This document shows, in pieces, positions 588 through 19,949 of a stretch of DNA of 23,745 nt. The DNA lies in assembly GCA_038893995.1 (NCBI GenBank), contig JAWAQK010000038.1, forward strand, positions 1 through 23,745, written 5' to 3'. The position numbers and the translations under genes are program-made. Positions within the stretch are counted from its first letter, which is position 1, and each line of letters starts with the position of its first letter. The stretch comes from Candidatus Thorarchaeota archaeon (GTDB lineage: Archaea > Asgardarchaeota > Thorarchaeia > Thorarchaeales > Thorarchaeaceae). The notes beneath the pieces are model-generated. The model saw only the letters and a list, made by a program, of their open reading frames with translations. It had not been told where the DNA came from and did no database searches.

Positions 588-1508
588 GTGCCCAGAGAAG
601 TACATGCTATCTGGTGGGATGACAATCTGGGCCCGCTTGTTGGTCGGTCGTACCCGGAAGACACAGGACTCACATCCGAAGAGGCGCTCCGCGTGTTCAT
701 GGGGCACGGTATCCATCAGGAGGCCCCGATAGGATACACCAATCTTGGCAAGGGGCTTGTTGTTTCCCTGATGCGCCCACCAAACTGCATTGCTGTGGTG
801 CTCGAGCAGGACGAGGATCCACTGGCAGTCGAGCGTGCCATCATCAGGGTGTGTTCAGAGATAGACTTCAACAGCGACAGGTGGGGCATGGAGCTCCGGC
901 ATGTATTCGAACGCATACAGAAACTCCTGAGGTCTGCGTCACTTGACGAGCTCATTGCCAGACCGGAGATACGAAGGCTAATGGAACACATGGGCGAAGG
1001 ACGAGTGCCGGTCCTGGCTCCTGAGCATGTCCTGATCAGCCGAGTCCGATATCCCGTAGCGATGTCCTACCTCGGCCCGGACGAGGAGGAAACGACAAGA
1101 GTCCTGCACGATCTCGAGGCAGCAGGTCTGCTGGTAGCGAGGAGCTTTGGACGAAGGCTCGTCTGCAGGCAATGTGGACAGTCGGAGGTGAGACTGACTC
1201 TGACCTGTCCCCGGTGCGGGTCTTCGCGTCTTCATGGCGTCTACGGGATCTTCTGCCCACACTGCAGTAGCCGAACAGTTGCAGTACTCCCTGACGAGAT
1301 GACCGAGGTATCCTGCCAGCAATGCAAGGGCAGCATACCTGTGTCTGAGCTACGCGTGCTGGATGTCGAGATACTTTGTGCTGACTGCGGAAACTCCACT
1401 GTAGACGCGAGCATCGTGCTGCACTGCGCGGCGTGCGGCCGGCAGCTGACCAATGTAGATATGCTAGGTGCGACTGGACTTGCCTATTACCCGAAGACAG
1501 ACGGATGA
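588..1508 (+). CDS. uDENN/longin-like N-terminal domain plus TackOD1-like multi-zinc-ribbon domain protein
   Basis: N-terminal AIWWDDNLGPLVGRSYP resembles the uDENN/longin 'FD..xGP....YP' start. The C-terminal half has RYP...VLHDLEAAGLL (wHTH-like) followed by six CxxC pairs: CRQC, CPRC, CPHC, CQQC, CADC, CAAC. GAGG precedes the GTG start. Confidence 0.65.
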   Translation: MPREVHAIWWDDNLGPLVGRSYPEDTGLTSEEALRVFMGHGIHQEAPIGYTNLGKGLVVSLMRPPNCIAVVLEQDEDPLAVERAIIRVCSEIDFNSDRWGMELRHVFERIQKLLRSASLDELIARPEIRRLMEHMGEGRVPVLAPEHVLISRVRYPVAMSYLGPDEEETTRVLHDLEAAGLLVARSFGRRLVCRQCGQSEVRLTLTCPRCGSSRLHGVYGIFCPHCSSRTVAVLPDEMTEVSCQQCKGSIPVSELRVLDVEILCADCGNSTVDASIVLHCAACGRQLTNVDMLGATGLAYYPKTDG

Positions 1509-1525: not shown

Positions 1526-3142
1526 CTACTTCTTGGAGGTCGACCGATCCGAGTTGGTCATGTTCCTGACGACCTCGCGGGCCCCCTCGATGATCTTCTC
1601 TGCCTGTCTGGGTGTGATGCCCCTCACCTTAGACGAGAGTTTCGATGGTGACTCCCCTGCGATCCGCAGGGGTGAGTCGTAACCGGCCTGCCTGAGACGC
1701 TCCTCCATCCGTGGTCCGACGCCCGGAATAGTCCTTAGCACACTCTTCCCTTCTGATGTCTCCCCGAGGATCTCCCTCATCTGTTCCTCGCTGATCTCCT
1801 CGGTCGCTTCGGCCAGTTCCAGTTGTGCCCTCACGGATGCTATGTCCTCCTCTGGGACCAGCGACTCGACAGTCTTCCTGATCTCGTGCTCATCGAAGTC
1901 GATTGAGATGTCCTCCATCTCTATCTCACGTCCTAAGAGCTCCTCCGTTGAGGTCGAGGTATAGAGTGCCATGAGCGCCAGTAATATACCAAACTCGTTC
2001 CCCACCCCCGCCACCACGGCGGGCACAGTCCAGCCGAAGGCATGCAGAGAGACCGCCCAGAACAGGCACAGATATCCCACGAAGAAGCACCATATCAGGG
2101 CCACTCGAAGAGCTCTTGTCTTGGGTGGCCCCTGCTCGCTCCACACAAGAAAGACACAGAATCCCAAGAGGTAGCCCTCCACGAGCCTCTCCACTACGAA
2201 CAGTCCTGCATAGTTAGGTGTCGGGTATGCAGGACCGTAGAACGCAGAACCAAATATGGCAAGGAGGGCCAGCAGGAATACAGCTGTGCTGAATATTCTC
2301 CTTCTGCCAACCAGATCCGCTAGTAGCGATGAGGAGAGCACCCCCAGTATGAGCAGGATGGGCTCATATGTCGCAAGGCCCGATGCGTCGGCCAGCGAAA
2401 TGAAGTCATGACCCAACTCGTATGCTCTCTCCGACAGCTTGGTCTCGGTAGCAAAGTACCACAGCATGTATGATGCCATGAGCAGGACGGTAGGAATGAA
2501 GTATGAGCGCACGTTCCCACTACACGCGAGAGCATGAGACTCCCATCTCCAGGGTCGCAGCAAGAGACTGACGACAATCGATACTAATGCAATCGTCTCG
2601 GGAATGTTGGGGCCTCCGGACCACGATGGCCGATTACCTAGACTCCAGTAGTCGATGATGGCGAGTACTGATATCAGGATGACCAAGTATACTCCAACGA
2701 TACGTCCCCTGTACCTGATGGTAACGGTAGTGTTCAGTTGCATCAACCAGCACAGTGAGAACAATGCCAGCCCAGCAAAGGCCGATACTGCAATGGACCA
2801 CTCGAGGTATGGTGTGTAGGGGCTGGGATACCCCATGGCCGAGCCTGATGCCAAGAGAAGGATGGGCACGACCGCAGACAAGCCCATCAGTAGACCACTG
2901 TGACTCACCCTGCAGATGAAGATCGCTGACAATACGAGTATGAGACCCGCTGCGCCCGCGGACGTTCCTAGCATGACAAGTTCGTCCACCAGACCCAGCT
3001 GATCGAGAGATCCGAACATGGAGCGGCTCGTCAATCTGAGGACCACTGATGCCAGGCAGGCCGAGACGGGCGCGTACGACCAGTAGAAAAGTGCCTTCTG
3101 GTAGGGGAAGTTCCTGTACTCAAGCATTCGGTCACCATCCAC
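1526..3142 (-). CDS. MFS-like polytopic membrane protein with C-terminal helix-hairpin-helix (RadA/Rad51 N-terminal-like) domain
   Basis: About 12 hydrophobic segments and an MFS motif-A-like SLLADLVGRRRIF. An acidic linker follows, then LRTIPGVGPRMEERLRQAGYDSPLRIAGESPSKLSSKVRGITPRQAEKIIEGARE (double HhH). Confidence 0.75.
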   Translation of the reverse strand: MDGDRMLEYRNFPYQKALFYWSYAPVSACLASVVLRLTSRSMFGSLDQLGLVDELVMLGTSAGAAGLILVLSAIFICRVSHSGLLMGLSAVVPILLLASGSAMGYPSPYTPYLEWSIAVSAFAGLALFSLCWLMQLNTTVTIRYRGRIVGVYLVILISVLAIIDYWSLGNRPSWSGGPNIPETIALVSIVVSLLLRPWRWESHALACSGNVRSYFIPTVLLMASYMLWYFATETKLSERAYELGHDFISLADASGLATYEPILLILGVLSSSLLADLVGRRRIFSTAVFLLALLAIFGSAFYGPAYPTPNYAGLFVVERLVEGYLLGFCVFLVWSEQGPPKTRALRVALIWCFFVGYLCLFWAVSLHAFGWTVPAVVAGVGNEFGILLALMALYTSTSTEELLGREIEMEDISIDFDEHEIRKTVESLVPEEDIASVRAQLELAEATEEISEEQMREILGETSEGKSVLRTIPGVGPRMEERLRQAGYDSPLRIAGESPSKLSSKVRGITPRQAEKIIEGAREVVRNMTNSDRSTSKK

Positions 3143-3395: not shown

Positions 3396-5030
3396 TTGTG
3401 TATCGATTCAGTGAAAGTCATAGTTGAGGGAATCTCCACAGGTGTTCCCGCAGTTAGGAGAAAGAGCATGCTCCAGGCAGTCGTGAGTGGCTTACTTGTC
3501 CTATGTATTTCGTTCCTAGTCGCGTTGACCGTGATCTTCCTAGCAACCGATTCCCTGGTGACCGTATCTGACTACATTCGACTCTCGTCTACGGCGGCAA
3601 TGGTTGGGGGGGCATGCGCCATCCTGCTGGTGATTGATAGACGCGTGAAGAATGAATTTCCCTCAGTCCTACTGCTACTGGTCATGCTAGTGGCCATCTC
3701 TGGGGCAGACGACCCTATCCAGATCGCCGCGGGGCGCTCCGTGTTCATGCTGGCAGTGCCCATTGTCCTTTCCGGAATGATTACGCGGCCTGCTGTCACT
3801 TTCCTGGCGGCTGCGGCATCAGGTGTCATACTAGTTGTATCTGCATTACGTGCAGGCATTGTTCCCAGCCTACCCACACTTGTGGGGTTTGCAGGACTGG
3901 CAATCATCATCTGGGCGTGGTCCTACGCGCTCGAACTGAGTGCAGAGTATCTCCGGTCGAGCAGGGACCAGTATAGGCTCCTCACTGACAACATCCAAGA
4001 CGTGATAGTTGCGGTCGACCTGTCAGGTCGTGTGGTATTCGTCAGCGAATCGGTCGAGCGGTTGTTGGGATACAGACCTGAAGAGGTCATTGGTAAGGAC
4101 CTGGTCAGCTTTGTAGTTCCAGAATCAAGAGCAGCAGCGCTTGAAGCGCATCAGCAGTTGATGTCTCCTGTGACTTCTCACCTGGCGCCGGAGAGTGTGG
4201 AGCTTGAGGTCCTTCGGGCTGACGGCTCTCGAAGATGGGTAGAGGTCGTTCGTTCACTGACCATAAGTCCCAGTGGTGAGCTGGTCGGTGCGGTCGGAGT
4301 GGTCCGGGAGATAGAAAAGCGAAAGAATGCAGAGATGCAGCTTCAGCAGGCCCTGAGGTTGTCGGACTTCTACACTGACCTCATGGCGCATGACATCTCG
4401 AACGTGAATCAGGCCATGATGATCTCGCTTGAGCTCCTGAGGAATCGGATCGGACCAGACCCCAGTTCTCAGGAACTCCTCAATGCCGCCTCAAGCCAGC
4501 TGCAACAATGTATTCAGCTGGTCGACAAGGTCAGACTTCACGCAAGTCTGAGGAAGCTTCCCAAGGCTCTGAGGCCTCTTGACATATCGATGTCCCTCTC
4601 TGAGGCCATCAATGTCGCAAGAAACTCATTCCCGGACAGGAATGTGCATGTCCATAGTGCGGTCCCGTGTGGAGAGTTCTTCGTGAATGCGGATGAGTTC
4701 CTGTTTGAACTCCTATACAACCTGCTTCATAACAGCATCAAGTACGACAGCTCGAGGGAGGTCATCATCAATGTGAGCGCAGAGAGACACGGGAACGACT
4801 CTGTAACTATTGTCATAGACGATCGTGCAGGGGGAATGAGCGACGACATCCGGGAGTGGCTGTCCTCTGATTCCGCTGACCCTGTGCATCCGAAGAAACG
4901 CCTCGGTCTGGTATTAGTGAGGCAGATCGTGAAGCGGTACGGCGGGTCTCTCCGTGCAGAGGATCTAGAAGTTGATGGAAAGAGAGGAACTAGTATCCGG
5001 ATCACCTTTCCCTTGGCTCCCCGACCATGA
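3396..5030 (+). CDS. Membrane-bound PAS-domain sensor histidine kinase (start uncertain: 3396, 3411 or 3468)
   Basis: About 5-6 N-terminal TM helices; PAS domain (YRLLTDNIQDVIVAVDLSGRVVFVSESVERLLGYRPEEVIGK...RADGSRRWVEV); H-box LMAHDISN; N-box LLYNLLHNSIKY; atypical G1 DDRAGGM and G2 RLGLVLV; C-terminal GTSIRITFP. Confidence 0.9.
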   Translation: MCIDSVKVIVEGISTGVPAVRRKSMLQAVVSGLLVLCISFLVALTVIFLATDSLVTVSDYIRLSSTAAMVGGACAILLVIDRRVKNEFPSVLLLLVMLVAISGADDPIQIAAGRSVFMLAVPIVLSGMITRPAVTFLAAAASGVILVVSALRAGIVPSLPTLVGFAGLAIIIWAWSYALELSAEYLRSSRDQYRLLTDNIQDVIVAVDLSGRVVFVSESVERLLGYRPEEVIGKDLVSFVVPESRAAALEAHQQLMSPVTSHLAPESVELEVLRADGSRRWVEVVRSLTISPSGELVGAVGVVREIEKRKNAEMQLQQALRLSDFYTDLMAHDISNVNQAMMISLELLRNRIGPDPSSQELLNAASSQLQQCIQLVDKVRLHASLRKLPKALRPLDISMSLSEAINVARNSFPDRNVHVHSAVPCGEFFVNADEFLFELLYNLLHNSIKYDSSREVIINVSAERHGNDSVTIVIDDRAGGMSDDIREWLSSDSADPVHPKKRLGLVLVRQIVKRYGGSLRAEDLEVDGKRGTSIRITFPLAPRP

Positions 5031-5122
5031 CCGATCATGACGGCAGAACAGGGTACATCGCGACCGAATGGCAGTGGAGACCGGAGAGATGCCTGGCGAC
5101 TGCACCAGTGCGGCTGCCACAG

Positions 5123-5138
5123 ACGAGATACCTTAAAT
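5123..5138 (+). promoter_or_regulatory. Putative BRE/TATA promoter of the longin-longin-MinD unit
   Basis: ACGAGATACCTTAAAT, with TTAAAT at 5133-5138 about 40 nt upstream of TTG 5177, and a GGAGGAG RBS at 5164-5170. Confidence 0.5.
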
Positions 5139-5176
5139 TCGATTCATGCAGTCAGCATCGGACGGAGGAGATAGAC

Positions 5177-6085
5177 TTGGCTACCTCTCGCCTGAAGATA
5201 CAGGAATTCATGATCCTCACGGCCGGAGGCGTGCCGTTGTTCATATACTCCTCCACGCAGCAGAGACGACTTGACGAGCTCATCTCCGGATTCCTCACTG
5301 CAATAACGAGCTTCGCCTCTGAGTTCGGGGAGAAGTCTGTACAGAGCCTCTCGTTCGAGGGGTCGGAGATCCTGTATGAGCATTCTGGAAGTGAATACAT
5401 ATTCATCCTGCTGGCGGACGCAGATGCGCCGAACAGAGTATTGAGGGCGGTCCTCCGGGACCTGAAACACAAGTTCCTTCAGCGGTACGGCAACATACCC
5501 AGGATTGGAGTCGACTTTGAGGGGGCATATGCAGACTTTGAGGGTGAGGTGAAGCGGGCGTTCTCTTTCTATGAGGGCGTCCTAGTTACAATGAGCAGTC
5601 TGACATCGTTTGCGATACCGCTGCTCAACAGACCTGCCCTCGAGGCTGCCTCAGCAGGTGTTGGCATTCTGGACGAGTTCCATAGGGACTTTGGGACGAT
5701 GGGGACTCGGGTTCTCGAGGGTATTGACGGGAAACGTACGGTGTCGGAGATCAGCGAACAACTGGGAATCGGACTGGAGGATGTGAAGGAGGTAATCGAG
5801 TACCTCGCCATATGGGGCATCGTGAGGTTGGCGAAGGCATGTCCCCTCGTCAGGCCGGGCAACACTAGATTTGATGCATTCATTGAACTTGTGGGACTGC
5901 CGTCCAAGGACCATCAACTTCTCACCCGGGCAAAACCACTATGCAACGGGACAAGATCAATAGAGGAGATAAGTGAACGATTGGGTGTGACGCCAGAGAG
6001 ACTACATGAGGTCCTCTCCAAGGTTGGAGACAGCATCGAGTGGAGGCTGACGCAGATCACCCCCGCTGCTGGTGACAGACGATAG
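5177..6085 (+). CDS. Longin domain plus tandem winged-helix protein A (NPRL2/NPRL3-like architecture)
   Basis: Start moved from 5027 to in-frame TTG 5177 (RBS GGAGGAG; aligns with the N-terminus of the paralog). Longin pattern IQEFMILTAGGVPLF...LISGFLTAITSFASEF...VLRDLKHKFLQRY. Two wHTH-like units: RVLEGIDGKRTVSEISEQLGIGLEDVKEVIEYLAIWGIV and PLCNGTRSIEEISERLGVTPERLHEVL. Confidence 0.8.
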   Translation: MATSRLKIQEFMILTAGGVPLFIYSSTQQRRLDELISGFLTAITSFASEFGEKSVQSLSFEGSEILYEHSGSEYIFILLADADAPNRVLRAVLRDLKHKFLQRYGNIPRIGVDFEGAYADFEGEVKRAFSFYEGVLVTMSSLTSFAIPLLNRPALEAASAGVGILDEFHRDFGTMGTRVLEGIDGKRTVSEISEQLGIGLEDVKEVIEYLAIWGIVRLAKACPLVRPGNTRFDAFIELVGLPSKDHQLLTRAKPLCNGTRSIEEISERLGVTPERLHEVLSKVGDSIEWRLTQITPAAGDRR

Positions 6086-6152
6086 AGTCGTCCCGACGCG
6101 ATGAATCATGGGTCCAGATACCGTGCAACATGGCGGACAGGAGGCCACATGA

Positions 6153-7460
6153 TTGGTCAGAGAGATCATTGTACTCAGGGACACGGGCATTCCACTGCAC
6201 AACTACAGTGTGGACAGTAGGGAGAGGCTTGATGTTGTCGTGGCGGCATTCCTCTCCGCCATAGGCTCAATGGCTGAGACCATCAGTGAGAGCCAGATAC
6301 GGACTATTGCATTCTCCGAGAGCAAGTTTGTCTGGGTCAAGAAGGGAGACCTGTATCTGGTGGCACTGATCGGGGAGAGGGAAGACGCAGACATCTACCG
6401 TGTCATACTGCAGGAACTGTCTGAACGGTTCGTGAGCATGTTCTACTCGGAACTCCTGAAGGATGAGCCTGATCATAGAGCCTTCAGGAGCTTCACGGAT
6501 GTCGTCGATGCAACCCTCCAGAAGTTCGATGGCATACCCGGTCTCCGCAGGAGACACAGGACCGCGTCTCTTCCGCAGTCTGAGCTCCGGAGGCTCAGGC
6601 AGGCCCTCACCGAGGCTGAGAAACACAACATTGTACACCGGGGCGCTGTAGTCACGACTGACGGCCACGTCATCATTTCGGACCTACGATCGGATGAGCT
6701 AGAAGCGTTTCTCGAGACAAGAGAGTCCGTGCTGGCCGGATTGGGCTCAGGATCGGAACCACTCACGATTGTCCACACGAGCCTCGATCCTGTGACATCG
6801 TTTCTTGTCGCGCGGGTCGATGGTGACTCGTTATGCGTCTTTGTGACCAGGTCCGGGCTGGACTCTGAACACTATGATGATGTCCTCACGCCGTTCCTGT
6901 CAGAGTGTTCAACAATAGACTTCTCACTCATGAGGAGACACGAACCCATCGGCGCTACACGTCCGCTCCGTTTCTATGAGTACGATGCCGTGATACCACT
7001 CCTGCCCACAAGTGTGGCAGCGGATCCGTCGAGAGAACCACTTGCAAGCATGCCAAGGACAGTGGCTGCACGAGCGTTGGCTCTACTACGTGCGGTTGAC
7101 GGACGACTCACACTTGCAGAACTGTCTGAGTCTACAGACCTCGACATAGATGAACTGACCGAGACACTGGCGATACTGATATCAAGAAGAGTTGTGAGGA
7201 TGGCACCGTTGTACCCTGTACTGCGGAGCGATGACTCACGATTCATGACCTATCTTGAGGTCGTAGGAATGCCTAAGAGAGACTACGAGGTCATAAAGAA
7301 CGTGTTCGACTCTTGCGATGGAACTCACTCGTTGAGAGATATCGCCGAGAAGACAGGAGTACCAACCTCGAGGGTGCTTGAGGCCCTCAGGGGAATGGGA
7401 ACACACGTCGAATGGAGGACAGAAAGGGCCTCGACGGGACCTCCCGATGGAACAGACTAG
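6153..7460 (+). CDS. Longin plus roadblock/LC7-like plus tandem winged-helix protein B (paralog of protein A)
   Basis: TTG start with GGAGG upstream. Longin VREIIVLRDTGIPLH...VVAAFLSAIGSMAETI. Middle RGAVVTTDGHVIISDL matches the roadblock beta-hairpin pattern. wHTH units LLRAVDGRLTLAELSESTDLDIDELTETLAILISRRVV and SCDGTHSLRDIAEKTGVPTSRVLEAL. Confidence 0.8.
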   Translation: MVREIIVLRDTGIPLHNYSVDSRERLDVVVAAFLSAIGSMAETISESQIRTIAFSESKFVWVKKGDLYLVALIGEREDADIYRVILQELSERFVSMFYSELLKDEPDHRAFRSFTDVVDATLQKFDGIPGLRRRHRTASLPQSELRRLRQALTEAEKHNIVHRGAVVTTDGHVIISDLRSDELEAFLETRESVLAGLGSGSEPLTIVHTSLDPVTSFLVARVDGDSLCVFVTRSGLDSEHYDDVLTPFLSECSTIDFSLMRRHEPIGATRPLRFYEYDAVIPLLPTSVAADPSREPLASMPRTVAARALALLRAVDGRLTLAELSESTDLDIDELTETLAILISRRVVRMAPLYPVLRSDDSRFMTYLEVVGMPKRDYEVIKNVFDSCDGTHSLRDIAEKTGVPTSRVLEALRGMGTHVEWRTERASTGPPDGTD

Positions 7461-7474
7461 AAGTGGGACGATAC
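7446..7474 (+). repeat. Isolated degenerate copy of the CRISPR repeat overlapping the protein B stop codon
   Basis: GATGGAA-CAGACTAGAAGT-GGGACGATAC versus repeat GTTTGAATCAGACTAGAAGTAGGGTTGAAAC: 12-nt exact core (7453-7464), 24 of 31 positions identical with two single-base gaps. Could be chance. Confidence 0.35.
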
Positions 7475-7477
7475 TAT

Positions 7478-8233
7478 ATGACTGGCAAGATAATCAGTAT
7501 TCACTCGTTCCGTGGCGGCACCGGGAAGTCAAATATTGCCGCAAATCTGGCTACTCTTGCAGCCCTAGAGGGAAAGAAGGTCGCAGTGATGGACACCGAT
7601 CTGGCCTCTCCCGGAATTCACATAATCTTTGGGCTGGGCCGGACCAAGTTTGCACACACTCTCAACGACTATCTCAGGGGAGAGTGTAACATCACTGATG
7701 CCTGTATAGACCTCACGCGTATGGCTGACATCCGAAAGGGCCAGCTGTTCCTCATCCCGAGTTCTATGACTGCATCGGAGATAACCCGGATCCTTCGAGA
7801 GGGGTACGAGGTCAGCGACCTCAAGAATGGGTTTCATGAGGTCATCAAGAAGAAGAATCTCGACTATCTGATAATTGACACACATCCGGGGCTAGACAGA
7901 GAGACCCTGCTCTCGATGGCCACTGCGGATCATCTGTTTGTCGTCGCACGGATCGATGAACAGGACCTCCTTGGGACTGCTGCAACTCTCAGTGTAGCAT
8001 CCAAGCTGCAGGTCCCAGACACCAAGATAATCATCAACAAGAAGCCCCGAATCTACGATGATAGCGACATAATAGCACAGGTCGAGAGCAAGTTCAAGTG
8101 CAAGGTCGTATCGATCATACCACTGCTTCCGCTACTCATTGAGGTCGGCAGTAGATACATCGTGGTCCTGAGACATCCGGAGAGCGAGTTCACAGGGTGT
8201 ATCAAGCAGATCTACGACAGTCTTGTTGAGTGA
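7478..8233 (+). CDS. MinD/ParA-family (SIMIBI) ATPase
   Basis: Start at in-frame ATG 7478 (MTGKIISIHSFRGGTGKS). Deviant Walker A with R in place of the signature K; switch I VMDTDLASPG; Walker B LIIDTHPG; IIINK. Begins 17 nt after the protein B stop. Confidence 0.9.
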   Translation: MTGKIISIHSFRGGTGKSNIAANLATLAALEGKKVAVMDTDLASPGIHIIFGLGRTKFAHTLNDYLRGECNITDACIDLTRMADIRKGQLFLIPSSMTASEITRILREGYEVSDLKNGFHEVIKKKNLDYLIIDTHPGLDRETLLSMATADHLFVVARIDEQDLLGTAATLSVASKLQVPDTKIIINKKPRIYDDSDIIAQVESKFKCKVVSIIPLLPLLIEVGSRYIVVLRHPESEFTGCIKQIYDSLVE

Positions 8234-8392: not shown

Positions 8393-10213
8393 TCACCGCA
8401 CGAGGCCGGCCAGTCCAAGTTCCCTGAGAGTGACCTCCGTCGGGACACCAGAGCGGTCCCAGCCCCTGAGTTCATAGTATCTGTCGAGGCACTGTTCGAA
8501 GTCTTCGCGGCTGACAAACGCACTCATGCCTGCTCTGGGGCCCTCTGCCTGCGGTGTCCAGAACTTCTCAGGCAGGACATCGTCTCGTCTCGATGCGCCT
8601 TCACGGACGTTGAATAGCCTTGTGAGCGTATCGACCCGTCTTGCGAATCTCATCACGCTGTCCACGTCGTATGTCCTCCCAGTGGCAGCATTCAGAAGTC
8701 GGACCTTCTGATCGATACTCAGGGGCAGTCTGTAGGTGAAATGGCACACGATGAGCGAGTCGGTGAGTATCTTCTCGTCGCGCGATCGCATCATCGACTC
8801 GACCATGTCCATCGCCGACACATTCGGTGGTTCAGTAGTGGCAGGCCAGCCTCGCAGATGACTTCCGCCAACCTCCGCAGTGGCGTATGAGAGGCCCATA
8901 CCTCGTCTTCCACGTGGGTCCCATGCGGCAACGTCGAGTCCCTTGACATGTACTGCCAGCCTCTCCGATCCCTTCCCGATCCATTCTGAGGCCCGCTTCG
9001 TGCCATTCGCCAATAGATCGCCAAGTCCCTGTCTGTGCGCGATCATCCGAATCAGCCGCATTGCAGTCTCAGGGTCGCCAAACTGAAGTGGGACGCCGGT
9101 ATCATCGGCGCTGAGCATACCGTGTTCGAATGCCTCAATCGCGAATCCAATCGCACTGCCAGTGCTTATCGTGTCAAGTCCGTAGTCGTCGCAGAGGTAG
9201 TTCAGCCTCAACAGTCCCTCAAAGTCGTCTATTGAGAGGTTGCCACCAAGCAGTCCGATGCTCTCGTATTCGATAGTCGACTCGACCTCTCTGTCTGGGT
9301 TGTCAGGGTCACGGGTCGCATAGGCATGTGTGCACCTCATGATGCAGTTCGGACAGGACTGATGAGTCCCACGACCGAGTCTCTCATAGGCGGGATACAC
9401 ATCAAGGCCATCAGCAGCAGGGAAGTATCCACTCCTCCAGTTTCGGTGCGGGAACTGTCCCAGCTCATTGGCGACCTTCACCAGGAATCCAGTACCTCTG
9501 TCCTTGAATCCAGTGGTGTGCTCGGCCCACGACTTCACAGTTTCACGGGATACCTGACGCAGGCCTTCTGGGTCAGCCGCTCGTATACTCTTGGAACCGG
9601 ACACGACGACAGCCTTGAGGTTCTTCGAGCCCATGACTGCGCCCACCCCACCCCTCCCGGTCTGGTGAGCCACCTCACAGCTCCCAGTCGCAAACAGGAC
9701 TTGGTTCTCTCCCGCTGGCCCGATCGTGTATATGGCTGATGACTTGCCGTGTCGTTGATGTAGTACCCCTGTCGTGTGATGAATTCCTTTCCCCCAGAGG
9801 CCAGCAGCATCCTCAAAGGAACACACTCCGTTGCTGACGACCAGTACAGTTGGTCTCTCTGCGCGTCCTGTGACCTGCAATGCGTCAAGCCCCGCCCGCT
9901 TCAGCTCACGCCCGAGCGGGCCGCCGCAGTGCGAATCAAGAAAGAGGCCCGTGAGAGGCGACTTGGTGACAAGAGTCCATCGGCCGACACTCGGCCCCTC
10001 TAGACCCTGAAGCGGCCCCGTCATGAACAGCAGCATGTTCTCCGGACCTAGGGGATCCACTCCAGGACCGAGCCCGGTATACAGGAGGTAGGCCCCAAGT
10101 CCCTTGCCACCTATGAATGACTGGTATATCTCCTCATGGATCTCTCTCTTCGATGTCTTCTGGGTCGTCAGATCTACAGACAGCAGAGATCCCGCATAAC
10201 ATTCGTTGACCAT
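8393..10213 (-). CDS. aor: Aldehyde:ferredoxin oxidoreductase family (tungstopterin) protein
   Basis: GGKGLG...DPLGPENMLLFMTGPL, TKSPLTG, IGPAGEN, GRGGVGAVMGSKNLKAV, 4Fe-4S CPNCIMRC, EYES, CDDYGLDTIS, DSLIVC, C-terminal YYELRGWD...PT..TLRELGL. Confidence 0.95.
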   Translation of the reverse strand: MVNECYAGSLLSVDLTTQKTSKREIHEEIYQSFIGGKGLGAYLLYTGLGPGVDPLGPENMLLFMTGPLQGLEGPSVGRWTLVTKSPLTGLFLDSHCGGPLGRELKRAGLDALQVTGRAERPTVLVVSNGVCSFEDAAGLWGKGIHHTTGVLHQRHGKSSAIYTIGPAGENQVLFATGSCEVAHQTGRGGVGAVMGSKNLKAVVVSGSKSIRAADPEGLRQVSRETVKSWAEHTTGFKDRGTGFLVKVANELGQFPHRNWRSGYFPAADGLDVYPAYERLGRGTHQSCPNCIMRCTHAYATRDPDNPDREVESTIEYESIGLLGGNLSIDDFEGLLRLNYLCDDYGLDTISTGSAIGFAIEAFEHGMLSADDTGVPLQFGDPETAMRLIRMIAHRQGLGDLLANGTKRASEWIGKGSERLAVHVKGLDVAAWDPRGRRGMGLSYATAEVGGSHLRGWPATTEPPNVSAMDMVESMMRSRDEKILTDSLIVCHFTYRLPLSIDQKVRLLNAATGRTYDVDSVMRFARRVDTLTRLFNVREGASRRDDVLPEKFWTPQAEGPRAGMSAFVSREDFEQCLDRYYELRGWDRSGVPTEVTLRELGLAGLVR

Positions 10214-10546: not shown

Positions 10547-12538
10547 ATGTCTGCCACTACAACCAACGCGGGGAACCGTGTGATACGAGAACTGGACCCA
10601 CGTCTACTCCGGATTGCTGGTCTTGGAGGGGTCCTGGGCAGTCTTGCTGCATTGCTGGGCCTGGTATCAGCTGTCAACAGTGACCTGGTACCCGTCGGCT
10701 CTGTGTATATCATCGGGTACCTTGCAGAAGTACTGGTGACGCGACTGGACTCAGCTGCGGCGGGAGCAGTATTCTTCGCCCTGCTAGGCGTTGGTGCATT
10801 GCTACAATACCCTGCATTCAGAAGGGTCGCTCTCAACGTGGGGTCCGGGATGCCTAATGCAGTACTCGCTGCGGGTATCATGGGCATTGTTGCGACGGTG
10901 TATCATCTAGTGGCTTACACGGTGAACACCGCGGCACAGGTTCAGGTGATCAATTACGCCTCCAACACAGTCTTGATCGGATTCCTATTCATAGTTGCGT
11001 GGCAGATCAGTTCTAGTGTGTACGTCGATACCAGCAAGTCCTACGCCTACATGATTGCCGGAATCTGCAATGCACTATTCATTCCCCTGCTGGGTCTTGG
11101 GATAGATGGCCTTGAACCCGCAGGTAACCGACCAGGTCCCTGGACCGTAAATACCAGCATATTCGCCGCATACGCAGTGCTTGCAGTCGGTCAGCTACTC
11201 GTCGTCAAGTACTGGTGGGGCGGCCCGTCGCACATCAGAGAATATGCAAGGAGCACCCCCGCCGCCAAGCTAGGGTTCACTCTCTCCGGACTGCTGGTGT
11301 TCTTGGTGGGACTGGTTCCGTTGTCACTTGCTGTCAGGGACGTATCAGGATTGTCCGTGTGGGTGCCCTGGGGCCAGGCCACGACCTATGGCTTCCCAGA
11401 CTCTATGATCGCCTTCGAAACACCCCCATGGAAGACGCTCAGCGCGCTCTCGCTCATGCTGTTCTGGCTCTCTCTGGCTCCACGCCTCGGAGCTGGTGAA
11501 CTCAAGCTCACGAAGATAAGGTCTGACATTATCTCTGGCGGCATGAAATACTTCCTGATTGTCCTGGCGGTCATGGGCATAATGGGAGGGTGCTTCTCGG
11601 GCTCTCTGAGGGCCGCTACTGCGGGCTCGTATGGAGCGCTTCTGACAGTGGCTCCAGCAGCAGTGTTGTTCATTGTCGGCGCCGCCTACGTGTCCAATAC
11701 CGACGTCGTCTCGGGACTACCACTGGTCACCCTGTCAATGTTCCTGATGGTCTTGCCATCTTCACTGGCGACGATCACAACAACATTGTGGATACTGTGC
11801 ATTGTGACGCACTCCTTCCTTGTCATCGAGACCAAGCTGCGTGGTTTCACCTTCTTCTCCCAACCCATGCTGACAGTGATTGTGTCGGTCGCAGCCTCGT
11901 TACTCTTCGTGCTGTTCATACTGGGTCAACTAGGCACAGGCCCGCCAGCGATATGGCCTGCAAATCGCTGGTTCAACATAGACGTGCTCCCTGGTGTAGA
12001 TGAGCAATACCAGGGCCCCTCTGTGTTCGCCATGCTATTCACCATCCTGATGATCCGCAATGTTGCATCAGTCGGACTCGGCAGGGGACGTGAACTAGGG
12101 AGCGGAGGAGTTCTGATCATCATCAGTCTCCTCTTCATGCTCGGGTCTACGATTGTATCGTCCAACGCGGGTCTGACGCACCAGGCACTGACTGCAGCTG
12201 CATTGATGTTCATGTTCTACACCATCAGTTTCCCGCTGATGCTGTCCACAGTGATATCGATCGGGAATGCAGTTTCCAGGGCTAACCACGAGTTTGAGGG
12301 CACCCTCATGAGGGTCGGAAGCGTCGCCGCGATGGTATTCGGAGTGATCGTCGTCCTGTTTGCATTCAGTGTGTTCTCTGTCACACGACCGCTCGCCAGC
12401 GATGTCGCCCTCGCCGTGGCACTTATGGTGTCGCTCGTTGTGAGCACAGAGATCCTCCAGATCTTCGCGTGGCTGTCCGCAGGGGTGCGGTTTAGGCTCC
12501 TGACACAGGGACTGCGCTTCTCGCGGTCGGCCACATAG
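10547..12538 (+). CDS. Large polytopic membrane protein (roughly 18-20 TM segments), function unknown
   Basis: 663-aa ORF, almost entirely hydrophobic helices with short loops. GAGG RBS and an upstream GATAAATA TATA-like element near 10488-10496. No transporter signature recognised. Confidence 0.8.
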   Translation: MSATTTNAGNRVIRELDPRLLRIAGLGGVLGSLAALLGLVSAVNSDLVPVGSVYIIGYLAEVLVTRLDSAAAGAVFFALLGVGALLQYPAFRRVALNVGSGMPNAVLAAGIMGIVATVYHLVAYTVNTAAQVQVINYASNTVLIGFLFIVAWQISSSVYVDTSKSYAYMIAGICNALFIPLLGLGIDGLEPAGNRPGPWTVNTSIFAAYAVLAVGQLLVVKYWWGGPSHIREYARSTPAAKLGFTLSGLLVFLVGLVPLSLAVRDVSGLSVWVPWGQATTYGFPDSMIAFETPPWKTLSALSLMLFWLSLAPRLGAGELKLTKIRSDIISGGMKYFLIVLAVMGIMGGCFSGSLRAATAGSYGALLTVAPAAVLFIVGAAYVSNTDVVSGLPLVTLSMFLMVLPSSLATITTTLWILCIVTHSFLVIETKLRGFTFFSQPMLTVIVSVAASLLFVLFILGQLGTGPPAIWPANRWFNIDVLPGVDEQYQGPSVFAMLFTILMIRNVASVGLGRGRELGSGGVLIIISLLFMLGSTIVSSNAGLTHQALTAAALMFMFYTISFPLMLSTVISIGNAVSRANHEFEGTLMRVGSVAAMVFGVIVVLFAFSVFSVTRPLASDVALAVALMVSLVVSTEILQIFAWLSAGVRFRLLTQGLRFSRSAT

Positions 12539-18587: not shown

Positions 18588-19949
18588 TTGACCGCGAACT
18601 CGAAACAGTTAAGACCATGGCCTCCGAAATCGTTGCCAGCACCACTTCTAGGAGCGTTAGTCTTTCAATTGATCGTACCGGGGACGACTGTTGCACTGAC
18701 TCTGGTACCAGGATACGTCGAGATACGCGACAAAGGCCTGGTACAGAAGAAGGTCAAGACCAGGAACAGGTCGTTCGACGAGGTCGTCGAGGATGTCGAG
18801 GCCTACTTCCGCAGCAGGGGCAAGATACTGGCCCCGGGGCTGGCCAGAGAGACACTGGTCAAGATCGGACTCCCACAGGCTAGACTGATAGTAGGCCCCG
18901 AGGATTCCGAGAGCAAAGTCGGTGCAGAGGTACCTGTTCGGCCTGCCGTTGCCCGGACCGAAGTCATTGAGCGCTCTGTCTTGACTCCGTCAGACCAGAC
19001 CGTGATGGCGGAGATGCGAAGTCCGGAACTGGTCTCGAACTCAGTGGCTGAGGCTCCCTCAGTAGACGAGCTTCTACAGGCAAGGCCAGTGGTCGCAACA
19101 GACCGGGGCGGAGTCCTGAGAGAATCAGACCTGCAGGACATCCACTCGGCGCTCGATGCGGTGGAGCGACTGAGTGACTCGTTCATGACTGCTTCTCCGG
19201 AGTCGACGCAACCTCCAGCCAGACCTGCTATCCGGCTCGAGGGCTCCGAAGAGCTAGTTGCATCGTCAAGGACATTTGCGACGACGGTCAGACCGGTAGC
19301 CACGCCTACCACGAGCCCGACAGCAACCGCCTCGGTGCCAACGGAGTCTGCAACCATAACTTCGATACCTCATACTGAGAGTGTCTCCTCTGTCTACGTT
19401 GTCAAACCTCTTGTCAAGATCAAGGCATTGCTGCTTGGAGAGGACAACGTCGGAAAGCATACCCTACTGGAGAAGGCAGGATTCGTACTCAGCGAGGGCA
19501 TGCCGTACGTCTACAATCGAGTGGTTGAACTCGAGAACCATCGCGTCAGTATGGATGTCTGGTTGTTCGACGATGCTGTGAGGGCGAAGGTCACCAGGAA
19601 GATGTTCTATGGCGGGCCCGACGTGATCCTTGTCGTCTACTCCGCATCGGACAGATGGAGCTACGAGAGTCTTGACTTCTGGACAAAGGAGGTATCAGTG
19701 AACGTGCCGTCGGTACCGCCGATCGTGATAGTCGGAAACAAGAAGGACCAGAGGGAGCAAGTTCAGGAGTCCCAGATGCCGCCTGTGTCCGCCGAAGAGG
19801 GAGTTGCATACGCGGAATCGCTCGCAGCCAAGTTGGGGATAGGTGACCGGGTACACCCTGTGGCCTTTGTAGAGACCTCCTGTACACTGGGCGAGGGTGT
19901 GATGGAAACCTTCCGCGTTGCCGCAGACTTGTCGATCCGTGGCAAGTGA
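18588..19949 (+). CDS. Ras/Rab-superfamily-like small GTPase domain (degenerate) with ~275-aa N-terminal extension
   Basis: C-terminal G domain: KALLLGEDNVGKH (G1), MDVWLFDDA (G3 position), ILVVYSASDRWSYESL..W, IVIVGNKKD (G4), FVETSC..GEGV.ETF (G5). An N-terminal globular-looking segment is followed by a Pro/Thr/Ser-rich linker. Confidence 0.85.
   Translation: MTANSKQLRPWPPKSLPAPLLGALVFQLIVPGTTVALTLVPGYVEIRDKGLVQKKVKTRNRSFDEVVEDVEAYFRSRGKILAPGLARETLVKIGLPQARLIVGPEDSESKVGAEVPVRPAVARTEVIERSVLTPSDQTVMAEMRSPELVSNSVAEAPSVDELLQARPVVATDRGGVLRESDLQDIHSALDAVERLSDSFMTASPESTQPPARPAIRLEGSEELVASSRTFATTVRPVATPTTSPTATASVPTESATITSIPHTESVSSVYVVKPLVKIKALLLGEDNVGKHTLLEKAGFVLSEGMPYVYNRVVELENHRVSMDVWLFDDAVRAKVTRKMFYGGPDVILVVYSASDRWSYESLDFWTKEVSVNVPSVPPIVIVGNKKDQREQVQESQMPPVSAEEGVAYAESLAAKLGIGDRVHPVAFVETSCTLGEGVMETFRVAADLSIRGK

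Follow-up and report, generated by a model that had tools for sequence, protein, structure and literature searches.

A longin-winged-helix paralog pair encoded with a ParA-type ATPase in Thorarchaeota, a candidate ParA-partner module

The small GTPases of eukaryotic trafficking and nutrient signalling are universally controlled through platforms built from longin and Roadblock domains, and Asgard archaea are the place to trace the origin of such platform-GTPase control. In the MglB-MglA system a Roadblock/longin dimer regulates its NTPase, and the tri-longin subunits of Rab guanine-nucleotide exchange factors (GEFs) act as heterodimers of paralogs. ParA/MinD ATPases are served by small partners of the ParB/MinE type, which are encoded beside the ATPase, stimulate its hydrolysis and couple it to cargo. 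We know of no longin or Roadblock protein that has been shown experimentally to regulate a ParA/MinD ATPase. Here we analyse a locus of a Candidatus Thorarchaeota genome (GCA_038893995.1, 91%-complete) in which two paralogous genes, A and B, coding for proteins with longin and winged helix-turn-helix (wHTH) domains, precede a gene coding for a ParA/MinD-type ATPase, hereafter ParA. The three genes occupy positions 5177-8233 of JAWAQK010000038.1, the whole 23,745-nt stretch of which is referred to below as the window. We consider it about an even proposition that A-B-ParA forms a vertically inherited ParA-partner module of Thor- and Hermodarchaeota, with A and B regulating or tethering the ATPase; of the explanations considered, we hold this one to be the best.

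Both halves of this arrangement have already appeared in computational surveys. An "NPRL2-like" family of Thorarchaeota and Loki was reported in 2020 (bioRxiv 10.1101/2020.10.19.343400), and the accessible portion of that report mentions neither a pair nor an ATPase in connection with it. A mainly archaeal "ParA-wHTH system", comprising one or more wHTH genes, some of them fused to a profilin-longin-like domain, is proposed to coat invader DNA in a computational prediction of October 2026 (bioRxiv 10.64898/2026.10.19.760177, as far as accessible). The terms Thor, Asgard, Loki and Prometh have no occurrence in the main text of the latter preprint, and a literature search for longin or Roadblock regulators of ParA/MinD found only that prediction. 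A first-pass annotation of the window had taken the module for an undescribed one, which is only partly right given these two reports.

The peptides quoted in that annotation were all found in the translations of the open reading frames (ORFs) at 5027-6085 and 6153-7460, and the ATPase gene indeed follows B after 17 nt, the ORF of B ending at 7460 and the ATG of the ATPase standing at 7478 (Table 1). The TTG starts of A (5177) and B (6153) agree with the N-termini indicated by alignments of homologs. As for the single promoter and ribosome-binding site initially assigned to the genes, a GGAGG does precede A (5165-5169), but B has its own GGAGG, and a single promoter is unproven, the gene immediately before A (3396-5030) being one for a histidine kinase in the same orientation.

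A and B show paralogy over their N-terminal as well as their C-terminal parts, as had been noticed from the sequence. BLASTP comparison of A (query 5210-6085) with B returned two collinear matches, far beyond chance, one N-terminal (93 amino acids, 27% identity, E 3e-12) and one C-terminal (154 amino acids, 30% identity, E 2e-22). A was modelled with AlphaFold on a 43-row alignment (predicted local distance difference test, pLDDT, 82.8; predicted template-modelling score, pTM, 0.80); the model contains a longin domain (residues ~8-141) followed by two units each made of a long helix and a winged helix (~164-224 and 243-294). In the model of B (pLDDT 78.8, pTM 0.62) a longin domain (~1-130) is followed by a Roadblock domain (~133-260), whose elements run in the order alpha-beta-beta-alpha-beta-beta-beta-alpha, and by two winged-helix units (~302-351 and 362-414). 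VIA-align superposed the longin of A on longin chains with Z 15.2 over 123 aligned residues (2.4 A root-mean-square deviation, rmsd) and that of B with Z 13.8 over 118 residues (2.9 A rmsd), while residues ~133-260 of B matched the Asgard Roadblock chain 9jue_B (Z 12.9), Rag C-terminal domains (Z ~12.6) and MglB (Z 12.2). The longin plus winged-helix architecture first proposed therefore holds for both proteins, with the winged helices in tandem, but the Roadblock domain of B had been absent from that description.

Each family has its own conserved positions. In A, G17-G18-x-P20 precedes strand 2 in at least 90% of 43 sequences, and D166, H169, R170 and D171 are invariant ahead of the first winged helix (wHTH1). 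In B, the linker residues F125, G127, P129, R133 and R134 are invariant, and the GGxP of A finds its only counterpart in G12. The A family is strongly acidic (median isoelectric point 4.76, net charge -16), with net charges of -4 and -3 for its two winged helices; those of B are close to neutral, whereas ParA is slightly basic. Because of this acidity A is a poor DNA-binding candidate, and contacts with proteins are the likelier role of its winged helices. A search of NCBIfam found no family for A or B.

The ATPase matches the Pfam families AAA_31, ParA and CbiA (E 1e-17 to 3e-11). It had been called MinD-like, and it does belong to the ParA/MinD superfamily, but it is not MinD proper: it scores 81.9 bits against the NCBIfam model minD_arch (cut-off 201.75) and 62.1 against minD_bact (cut-off 212.9), and its RGGTGKS lacks the signature Lys. 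Its Walker A, HSFRGGTGKS, in which Arg12 replaces that Lys, the DTD..SPG.H stretch (S44-P45-G46) and the DTHPG Walker B are invariant in 20/20 aligned orthologs, and the enzyme is therefore probably active. The accessible part of the ParA-wHTH preprint (bioRxiv 10.64898/2026.10.19.760177) characterises the ConB2 ParA assemblage by an Arg that replaces the Walker A Lys and by a PG motif that follows sensor-1. Both occur here (R12 and the PG motif; the placement of sensor-1 at the DTD motif is our own reading), and judged by these motifs the ATPase belongs to the Arg-for-Lys "ConB2"-type ParA clade. It is the only gene of its type in the genome, where the sole other match is an ordinary KGGVGKS protein. 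In a prediction of the A+B+ParA complex the interface scores (ipSAE) were 0.00 and 0.01, the mark being 0.32; with only the ParA chain scored, it carries no weight for or against binding.

To examine the distribution of the three genes, we scanned 300 other Asgard genomes, including 76 of the window's own family (f1) and 19 of Hermodarchaeota (f12), with thresholds of E<=1e-60 for ParA orthologs and E<1e-100 for strong A orthologs. The named homologs of A and B all belong to Thorarchaeota. Strong A orthologs were detected in 60/76 genomes of the window's family and in none elsewhere among the 300. B-like proteins of 424-460 amino acids are also found in f12 and in a further family, f2, and strong B-like matches are confined to f1, f2 and f12. 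The ParA ortholog is a single-copy gene in 62/76 genomes of f1, 17/19 of f12 and the one genome each of f2 and f28 (1/1 in both), and was found in 0/203 genomes from the remaining 26 Asgard families.

Twenty loci were compared, 16 from Thorarchaeaceae (15 genera) and four from f2 and f12. A, B and ParA are contiguous on one strand in 11/16 Thorarchaeaceae loci, and B adjoins ParA in 12/16, in a 13th by coordinates and in a 14th with one gene inserted. An uncharacterised ORF of 317 amino acids (L041:9586-10539, genome G016) lies between B and ParA at 1/16 of these loci, in one genus, and kinase genes split A from B-ParA at two others, both from a single genus. The frames of B and ParA overlap or lie within 16 nt of each other in most Thor loci, an approximate figure that depends on longest-frame starts. 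All four f2 and f12 loci carry a B-like gene (30-33% identical) directly before a ParA ortholog (53-58% identical), and no A. Within Thorarchaeaceae, identities are 72-82% for ParA, the best conserved protein of the neighbourhood, 47-59% for A, 37-48% for B and 53-66% for the nearby aldehyde:ferredoxin oxidoreductase (AOR). The linkage of the pair with the ATPase, first read from the window, is thus kept in relatives, across most of the Thorarchaeaceae loci and, through B, in two other families. The association of the A/B genes with ParA is real and old.

A fourth gene is a probable member of the set. It codes for a protein (1526-3142) that is polytopic according to its hydrophobic segments and ends in a helix-hairpin-helix (HhH) tail similar to the N-terminal region of RadA/Rad51 (HHH_5, E 3e-10; Rad51 N-terminal region, E 2.8e-6). 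Its orthologs are divergent from A and directly abut it in most of the 16 Thor loci, and the membrane-HhH gene stays with A even where A has parted from B-ParA. At the Hermodarchaeota loci, proteins 24-26% identical to it are encoded divergently beside B-ParA. The histidine kinase is not part of the conserved set: it separates the membrane-HhH gene from A in this window only and in none of the 16 Thor loci, 13 of which have no similar gene and three of which have kinase-like matches elsewhere.

Relatives of ParA were also sought more widely, with one genome per species. The best 80 of 554 relatives correspond to 20 Thor-type loci (some from genomes shared with the 16-locus Thorarchaeaceae sample), four of Hermodarchaeota, one of Helarchaeota and 55 bacterial loci. 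The bacterial relatives, 46-51% identical, come mostly from Anaerolineae and other Chloroflexota, with some from cyanobacteria; many of the bacterial loci (L084-L136) hold two to three ParA paralogs. Phylogenetic analysis grouped the 39 Asgard ParA proteins in one clade with a support of 0.985 (FastTree, 114 sequences, midpoint root). Searches of the bacterial and Helarchaeota ParA loci with A and B profiles gave no match. At 28 of the 56 ParA loci from neither Thor nor Hermod, however, ParA is adjoined by a protein of 103-165 amino acids belonging to one family (e.g., L097:6750-7118), in which the N-terminus forms a helix, a winged helix comes next and the tail has a conserved IW..LD. This small family aligned with wHTH1 of B with 92% probability (E 5.6e-7) and with the second winged helix (wHTH2) of A with 81% (hhalign), compared with 93-95% when wHTH1 and wHTH2 of A and B are aligned with each other. 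These small helix-wHTH partners of bacterial, ConB2-type ParA relatives thus appear to resemble the winged helices of A and B, a likeness that is new here and lends modest support to the idea that, in A and B, the C-terminal half represents this clade's ParA-partner module.

The paralogy, the domain folds, the ATPase motifs, the gene linkage and the co-distribution shown above lead us to propose the following scheme. A and B would be elaborated forms of the small proteins, each a helix plus a winged helix, that are found with this ParA clade elsewhere, the small partners having been fused to longin (A and B) and Roadblock (B) platform domains. They may dimerise, using their longin/Roadblock as well as their winged-helix domains, may bind the ParA dimer in its ATP-bound state and may determine where it is located or how its ATPase cycle runs, as ParB and MinE do for ParA and MinD; such action would parallel that of longin/Roadblock dimers on small GTPases. 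They could also link ParA to cargo, possibly the divergently encoded membrane protein with its DNA-binding HhH tail. A bolder version, which we find doubtful on balance, is that the A/B family, sharing the longin/Roadblock platform plan of eukaryotic GTPase-activating and GEF complexes, swapped NTPase partners, so that one subfamily is encoded with Ras-like GTPases and the pair of Thor- and Hermodarchaeota regulates a SIMIBI ParA-type ATPase, and that A/B, ParA and the membrane-HhH protein form a housekeeping machine for nucleoid or membrane positioning rather than for defence.

Several points weigh against a ParA-partner module of this kind. We infer all physical contacts among A, B and ParA, as well as the direction of regulation and the cargo. 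The whole neighbourhood, including the genes for a TackOD1 protein, the membrane-HhH protein, AOR and a 663-residue protein, is collinear in Thorarchaeaceae, so that synteny inside this family says little and the meaningful signal is the cross-family adjacency of B and ParA. One of the 16 Thorarchaeaceae loci has A and ParA without B, B is also missing between A and ParA in L077 and L082 (one of which possibly represents that same genome), and in genome G164 (1/16 loci) A-B and ParA stand on different contigs. Genome G124, although 97%-complete, has none of A, B and the ParA ortholog. Five genomes of the family are without A or B and four of these, a 97%-complete one included, are also without the ParA ortholog, but such co-absence of adjacent genes in fragmented genomes is weak evidence. 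The ParA orthologs of Helarchaeota and f28 (L092 and L141) are preceded by a tetratricopeptide-repeat protein and a 110-137-residue protein rather than by A or B. The alignments of the small helix-wHTH family with wHTH1 of A (57%) and wHTH2 of B (34%) are modest, and winged helices are a common fold. The acidity of both winged helices of A (-4 and -3) makes DNA binding by this protein doubtful, and a search for centromere-like repeats near the operon found only short, chance-level repeats.

The pair had initially been likened to NPRL2 and NPRL3, the longin-containing paralogs of GATOR1. Foldseek comparison with the PDB gave, as the first 11 matches of A, chains of the GATOR1/SEA complexes (E 9e-8 to 7e-6, full-length, template-modelling (TM) score ~0.3), which from their lengths of 362-461 residues would be NPRL2/NPRL3. 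The first matches of B were subunits of Fuzzy/Inturned, Mon1/Ccz1 and BLOC-3 (E 1.2e-8 to 2e-6, TM ~0.3), and GATOR1 chains were reached by B only at E 4e-5. Among 43 A-family and 38 B-family members searched against Pfam at E<=0.01, none matched NPR2 (PF06218) or NPR3 (PF03666), and HTH_NPRL3 was matched by three and four, respectively, all below its cut-off. TrmB was matched by 41/43 and 36/38, HTH_47 by 38/43 and 19/38, and Fuz_longin_1 by 29/43 and 26/38 (best E 1.2e-5 in the B family). Sequence searches of the PDB with A- and B-family profiles found no NPRL chain, the best match being a RasGRF fragment (E 0.0085), and the Atlas neighbours were unnamed archaeal clusters; of the eukaryotic structures there, the Fuzzy/MON1 families came closest, and the list contained no NPRL cluster. 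The label "NPRL2/NPRL3-like" hence suits the architecture of A fairly well, as a description of layout rather than a demonstrated family membership, while B fits a longin-Roadblock platform better. The genome itself gave no match to NPR2 in a search without positive control and none to IML1 (DEPDC5), for which the control genomes gave none either; what matched Gtr1_RagA were small GTPases of a generic kind, with weak scores, and E. coli gave matches in the control too. No Arg is invariant in the longin domain of A or B, the equivalence to NPRL2 residues not being fixed by superposition.

Proteins resembling A (343-361 amino acids, longin plus two winged helices) were found in four other Asgard families. 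The gene of one 347-residue subfamily is followed, after 12-52 nt, by one for a Ras-like protein of 176-177 amino acids without P-loop (Pfam Ras, E 1.5e-9) and then by one for a Ras/Rab GTPase of 167-174 amino acids (E 1.5e-47). This operon of an A-like gene with Ras-like GTPase genes is new here; it is seen at 6/6 loci as far as the contigs reach (one genome locus and 5/5 metagenome loci), which fall into two sequence groups ~62% identical and share flanking tRNA-synthetase genes. The other A-like subfamilies (L139, L140, L142 and L146; L143 and L144) have no adjacent GTPase gene, those of L143 and L144 lying 3-4 kb away. There is thus thin but direct evidence that the A-like family can partner small GTPases elsewhere.

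Related layouts also occur beyond these loci. In the window's own genome, a second pair of adjacent paralogs (C60:6723-8511, minus strand; 281 and 300 amino acids) weakly matches the A profile over longin and wHTH and has an ORF of 130 amino acids, Roadblock-like, nearby. On the minus strand of C24 (23946-28254) stands a two-gene unit, twice repeated, coding for a protein of 315-332 amino acids with a C-terminal match to the A/B wHTH region and then for a protein of 157-176 amino acids. A representative search also returned multi-wHTH proteins of Micrarchaeota.

These comparisons bear on another reading of the locus, namely that A and B are a true GATOR1-like or Mon1-Ccz1-like GTPase-activating protein (GAP) or GEF for a small GTPase encoded elsewhere, the ATPase being only a co-transcribed neighbour. 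The top Foldseek matches of both proteins, the small GTPases encoded in the genome and the Ras/Rab operon found at all six loci of an A-like subfamily, as contigs allow, all speak for it. So does the G-G-x-P of A, which precedes longin strand 2, where GAP longins carry a GP motif; according to the accessible part of the same source, GAP longins and some Heimdallarchaeia longins have an Arg finger together with this motif (PMC12290439). Yet neither A nor B has an invariant longin Arg, the conserved set includes no small GTPase gene, ParA alone among NTPases is a constant neighbour in all three families, and NPR2 and IML1 gave no match in the genome, albeit in a search lacking a positive control. 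The GTPase operon, moreover, was seen only in a single A-like subfamily and in two groups of related loci, and we judge a GAP or GEF function for a remote GTPase decidedly improbable. Less credible still, and in our opinion highly improbable, is that A and B are ligand-sensing transcription factors, each a sensor joined to a TrmB-like wHTH, that control neighbours such as the convergent AOR gene. The near-universal TrmB matches, the conservation of AOR as a neighbour and the near-neutral winged helices of B are compatible with such a role, but the winged helices of A are acidic, the adjacency of AOR is explained by family collinearity, AOR is absent from the Hermod loci, and two tandem wHTH units after longin/Roadblock platforms would be an unusual layout for a regulator.

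Defence against mobile elements has to be considered as well, since we file A-B-ParA as a member of the predicted ParA-wHTH/ConB2 kind because it displays the features stated for ConB2 and for ParA-wHTH systems. The winged helices would here recognise invader DNA and ParA would polymerise on this DNA to block it. The ATPase does bear the ConB2 marks, the architecture fits that of an archaeal ParA whose one or more accompanying wHTH genes are in some cases joined to a profilin-longin-like domain, as outlined in the accessible part of the preprint (bioRxiv 10.64898/2026.10.19.760177), and A and B evolve faster than ParA. Immune systems would nevertheless be expected to be patchy with rapid turnover, whereas the genes described here are single copy, monophyletic and stable in position, with vertical inheritance over 15 genera and three families and a ParA 72-82% identical within the family. 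The conserved set holds no nuclease or other effector, A is acidic, and the main text of the preprint does not name the lineages listed above. The single copy, one origin, stable locus, very conserved ParA and lack of an effector gene argue against a typical defence island, and we regard an anti-mobile-element function as unlikely.

The other genes of the window are listed in Table 1. The TackOD1 protein recurs at the corresponding place of other Thorarchaeaceae loci (45-55% identity), and the 663-residue protein is kept downstream of AOR in relatives (32-42% identity). Further downstream, the C-terminal 170 residues of one protein form a Ras-family GTPase (E 4e-14) behind an N-terminal extension of 278 residues without Pfam match.

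Table 1. Features of the window, with the A-like operon of another Asgard lineage for comparison
Feature	Coordinates	Strand	Remarks
TackOD1 output domain and zinc-ribbon protein	588-1508	+	306 aa
Membrane-HhH polytopic protein	1526-3142	-	538 aa; HHH_5, Rad51 N-terminal match
Membrane PAS histidine kinase	3396-5030	+	PAS/HisKA/HATPase; Pfam PAS, HATPase_c
GGAGG ribosome-binding site of A	5165-5169	+	read from sequence; 7 nt before TTG 5177
Gene A	5177-6085	+	302 aa; longin and two helix-plus-winged-helix units; ORF and ribosome-binding site
GGAGG ribosome-binding site of B	6140-6144	+	read from sequence; 8 nt before TTG 6153
Gene B	6153-7460	+	435 aa; longin, Roadblock, two winged-helix units; paralog of A
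ParA/MinD-type P-loop ATPase	7478-8233	+	251 aa; Pfam AAA_31, ParA, CbiA
Aldehyde:ferredoxin oxidoreductase (AOR)	8393-10213		convergent, downstream of ATPase gene
663-aa protein without Pfam match	10547-12538	+	downstream of AOR
Ras-family GTPase with N-terminal extension	18588-19949	+	453 aa
A-like-Ras operon	L148:1134-3300; also L145, L147, L149-L151		flanked by tRNA-synthetase genes; another Asgard lineage

If longin and Roadblock platforms do control a ParA/MinD-type ATPase, the GTPase-centred view would underestimate both the age and the flexibility of the partnership between platforms and NTPases, and the module would offer a first handle on the positioning of DNA or membrane complexes in Thorarchaeota. 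The gene association is well supported, and what gives it value is a system of three or four proteins that is open to testing.

Compared with known systems, A and B share with NPRL2-NPRL3 (yeast Npr2-Npr3; GATOR1/SEACIT) the organisation of a paralog pair with an N-terminal longin and a C-terminal winged-helix-type region. They differ from it by lacking Pfam NPR2/NPR3 matches, by the absence of a DEPDC5/Iml1 match from a genome search that the control genomes did not match either, by longins without an invariant Arg in their family alignments, by the Roadblock domain of B and by their constant NTPase neighbour, which is a ParA-type ATPase instead of a Rag GTPase. B is like the tri-longin Rab-GEF subunits (Mon1-Ccz1, Fuzzy-Inturned, BLOC-3), which provide its top Foldseek matches, in having a longin followed by a Roadblock-like second domain; in B, however, two winged helices stand in place of the third domain, the TM score is only ~0.3 and no Rab partner is encoded near B. 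Unlike MglB-MglA, in which MglA is a Ras-like GTPase, the present NTPase is of the ParA/MinD type. The ParA-wHTH (ConB2) systems are likewise archaeal and combine a ParA that carries a PG motif and has Arg for Lys in its Walker A with adjacent genes whose wHTH is preceded by a long helix, some with a profilin-longin-like domain, all of which are found in the ATPase and in the models of A and B. Here, though, the partners are two paralogs with two wHTH units each and a Roadblock domain added in one, a membrane-HhH gene is a conserved neighbour, and the system is vertically inherited with a highly conserved ParA rather than patchy and fast-evolving.

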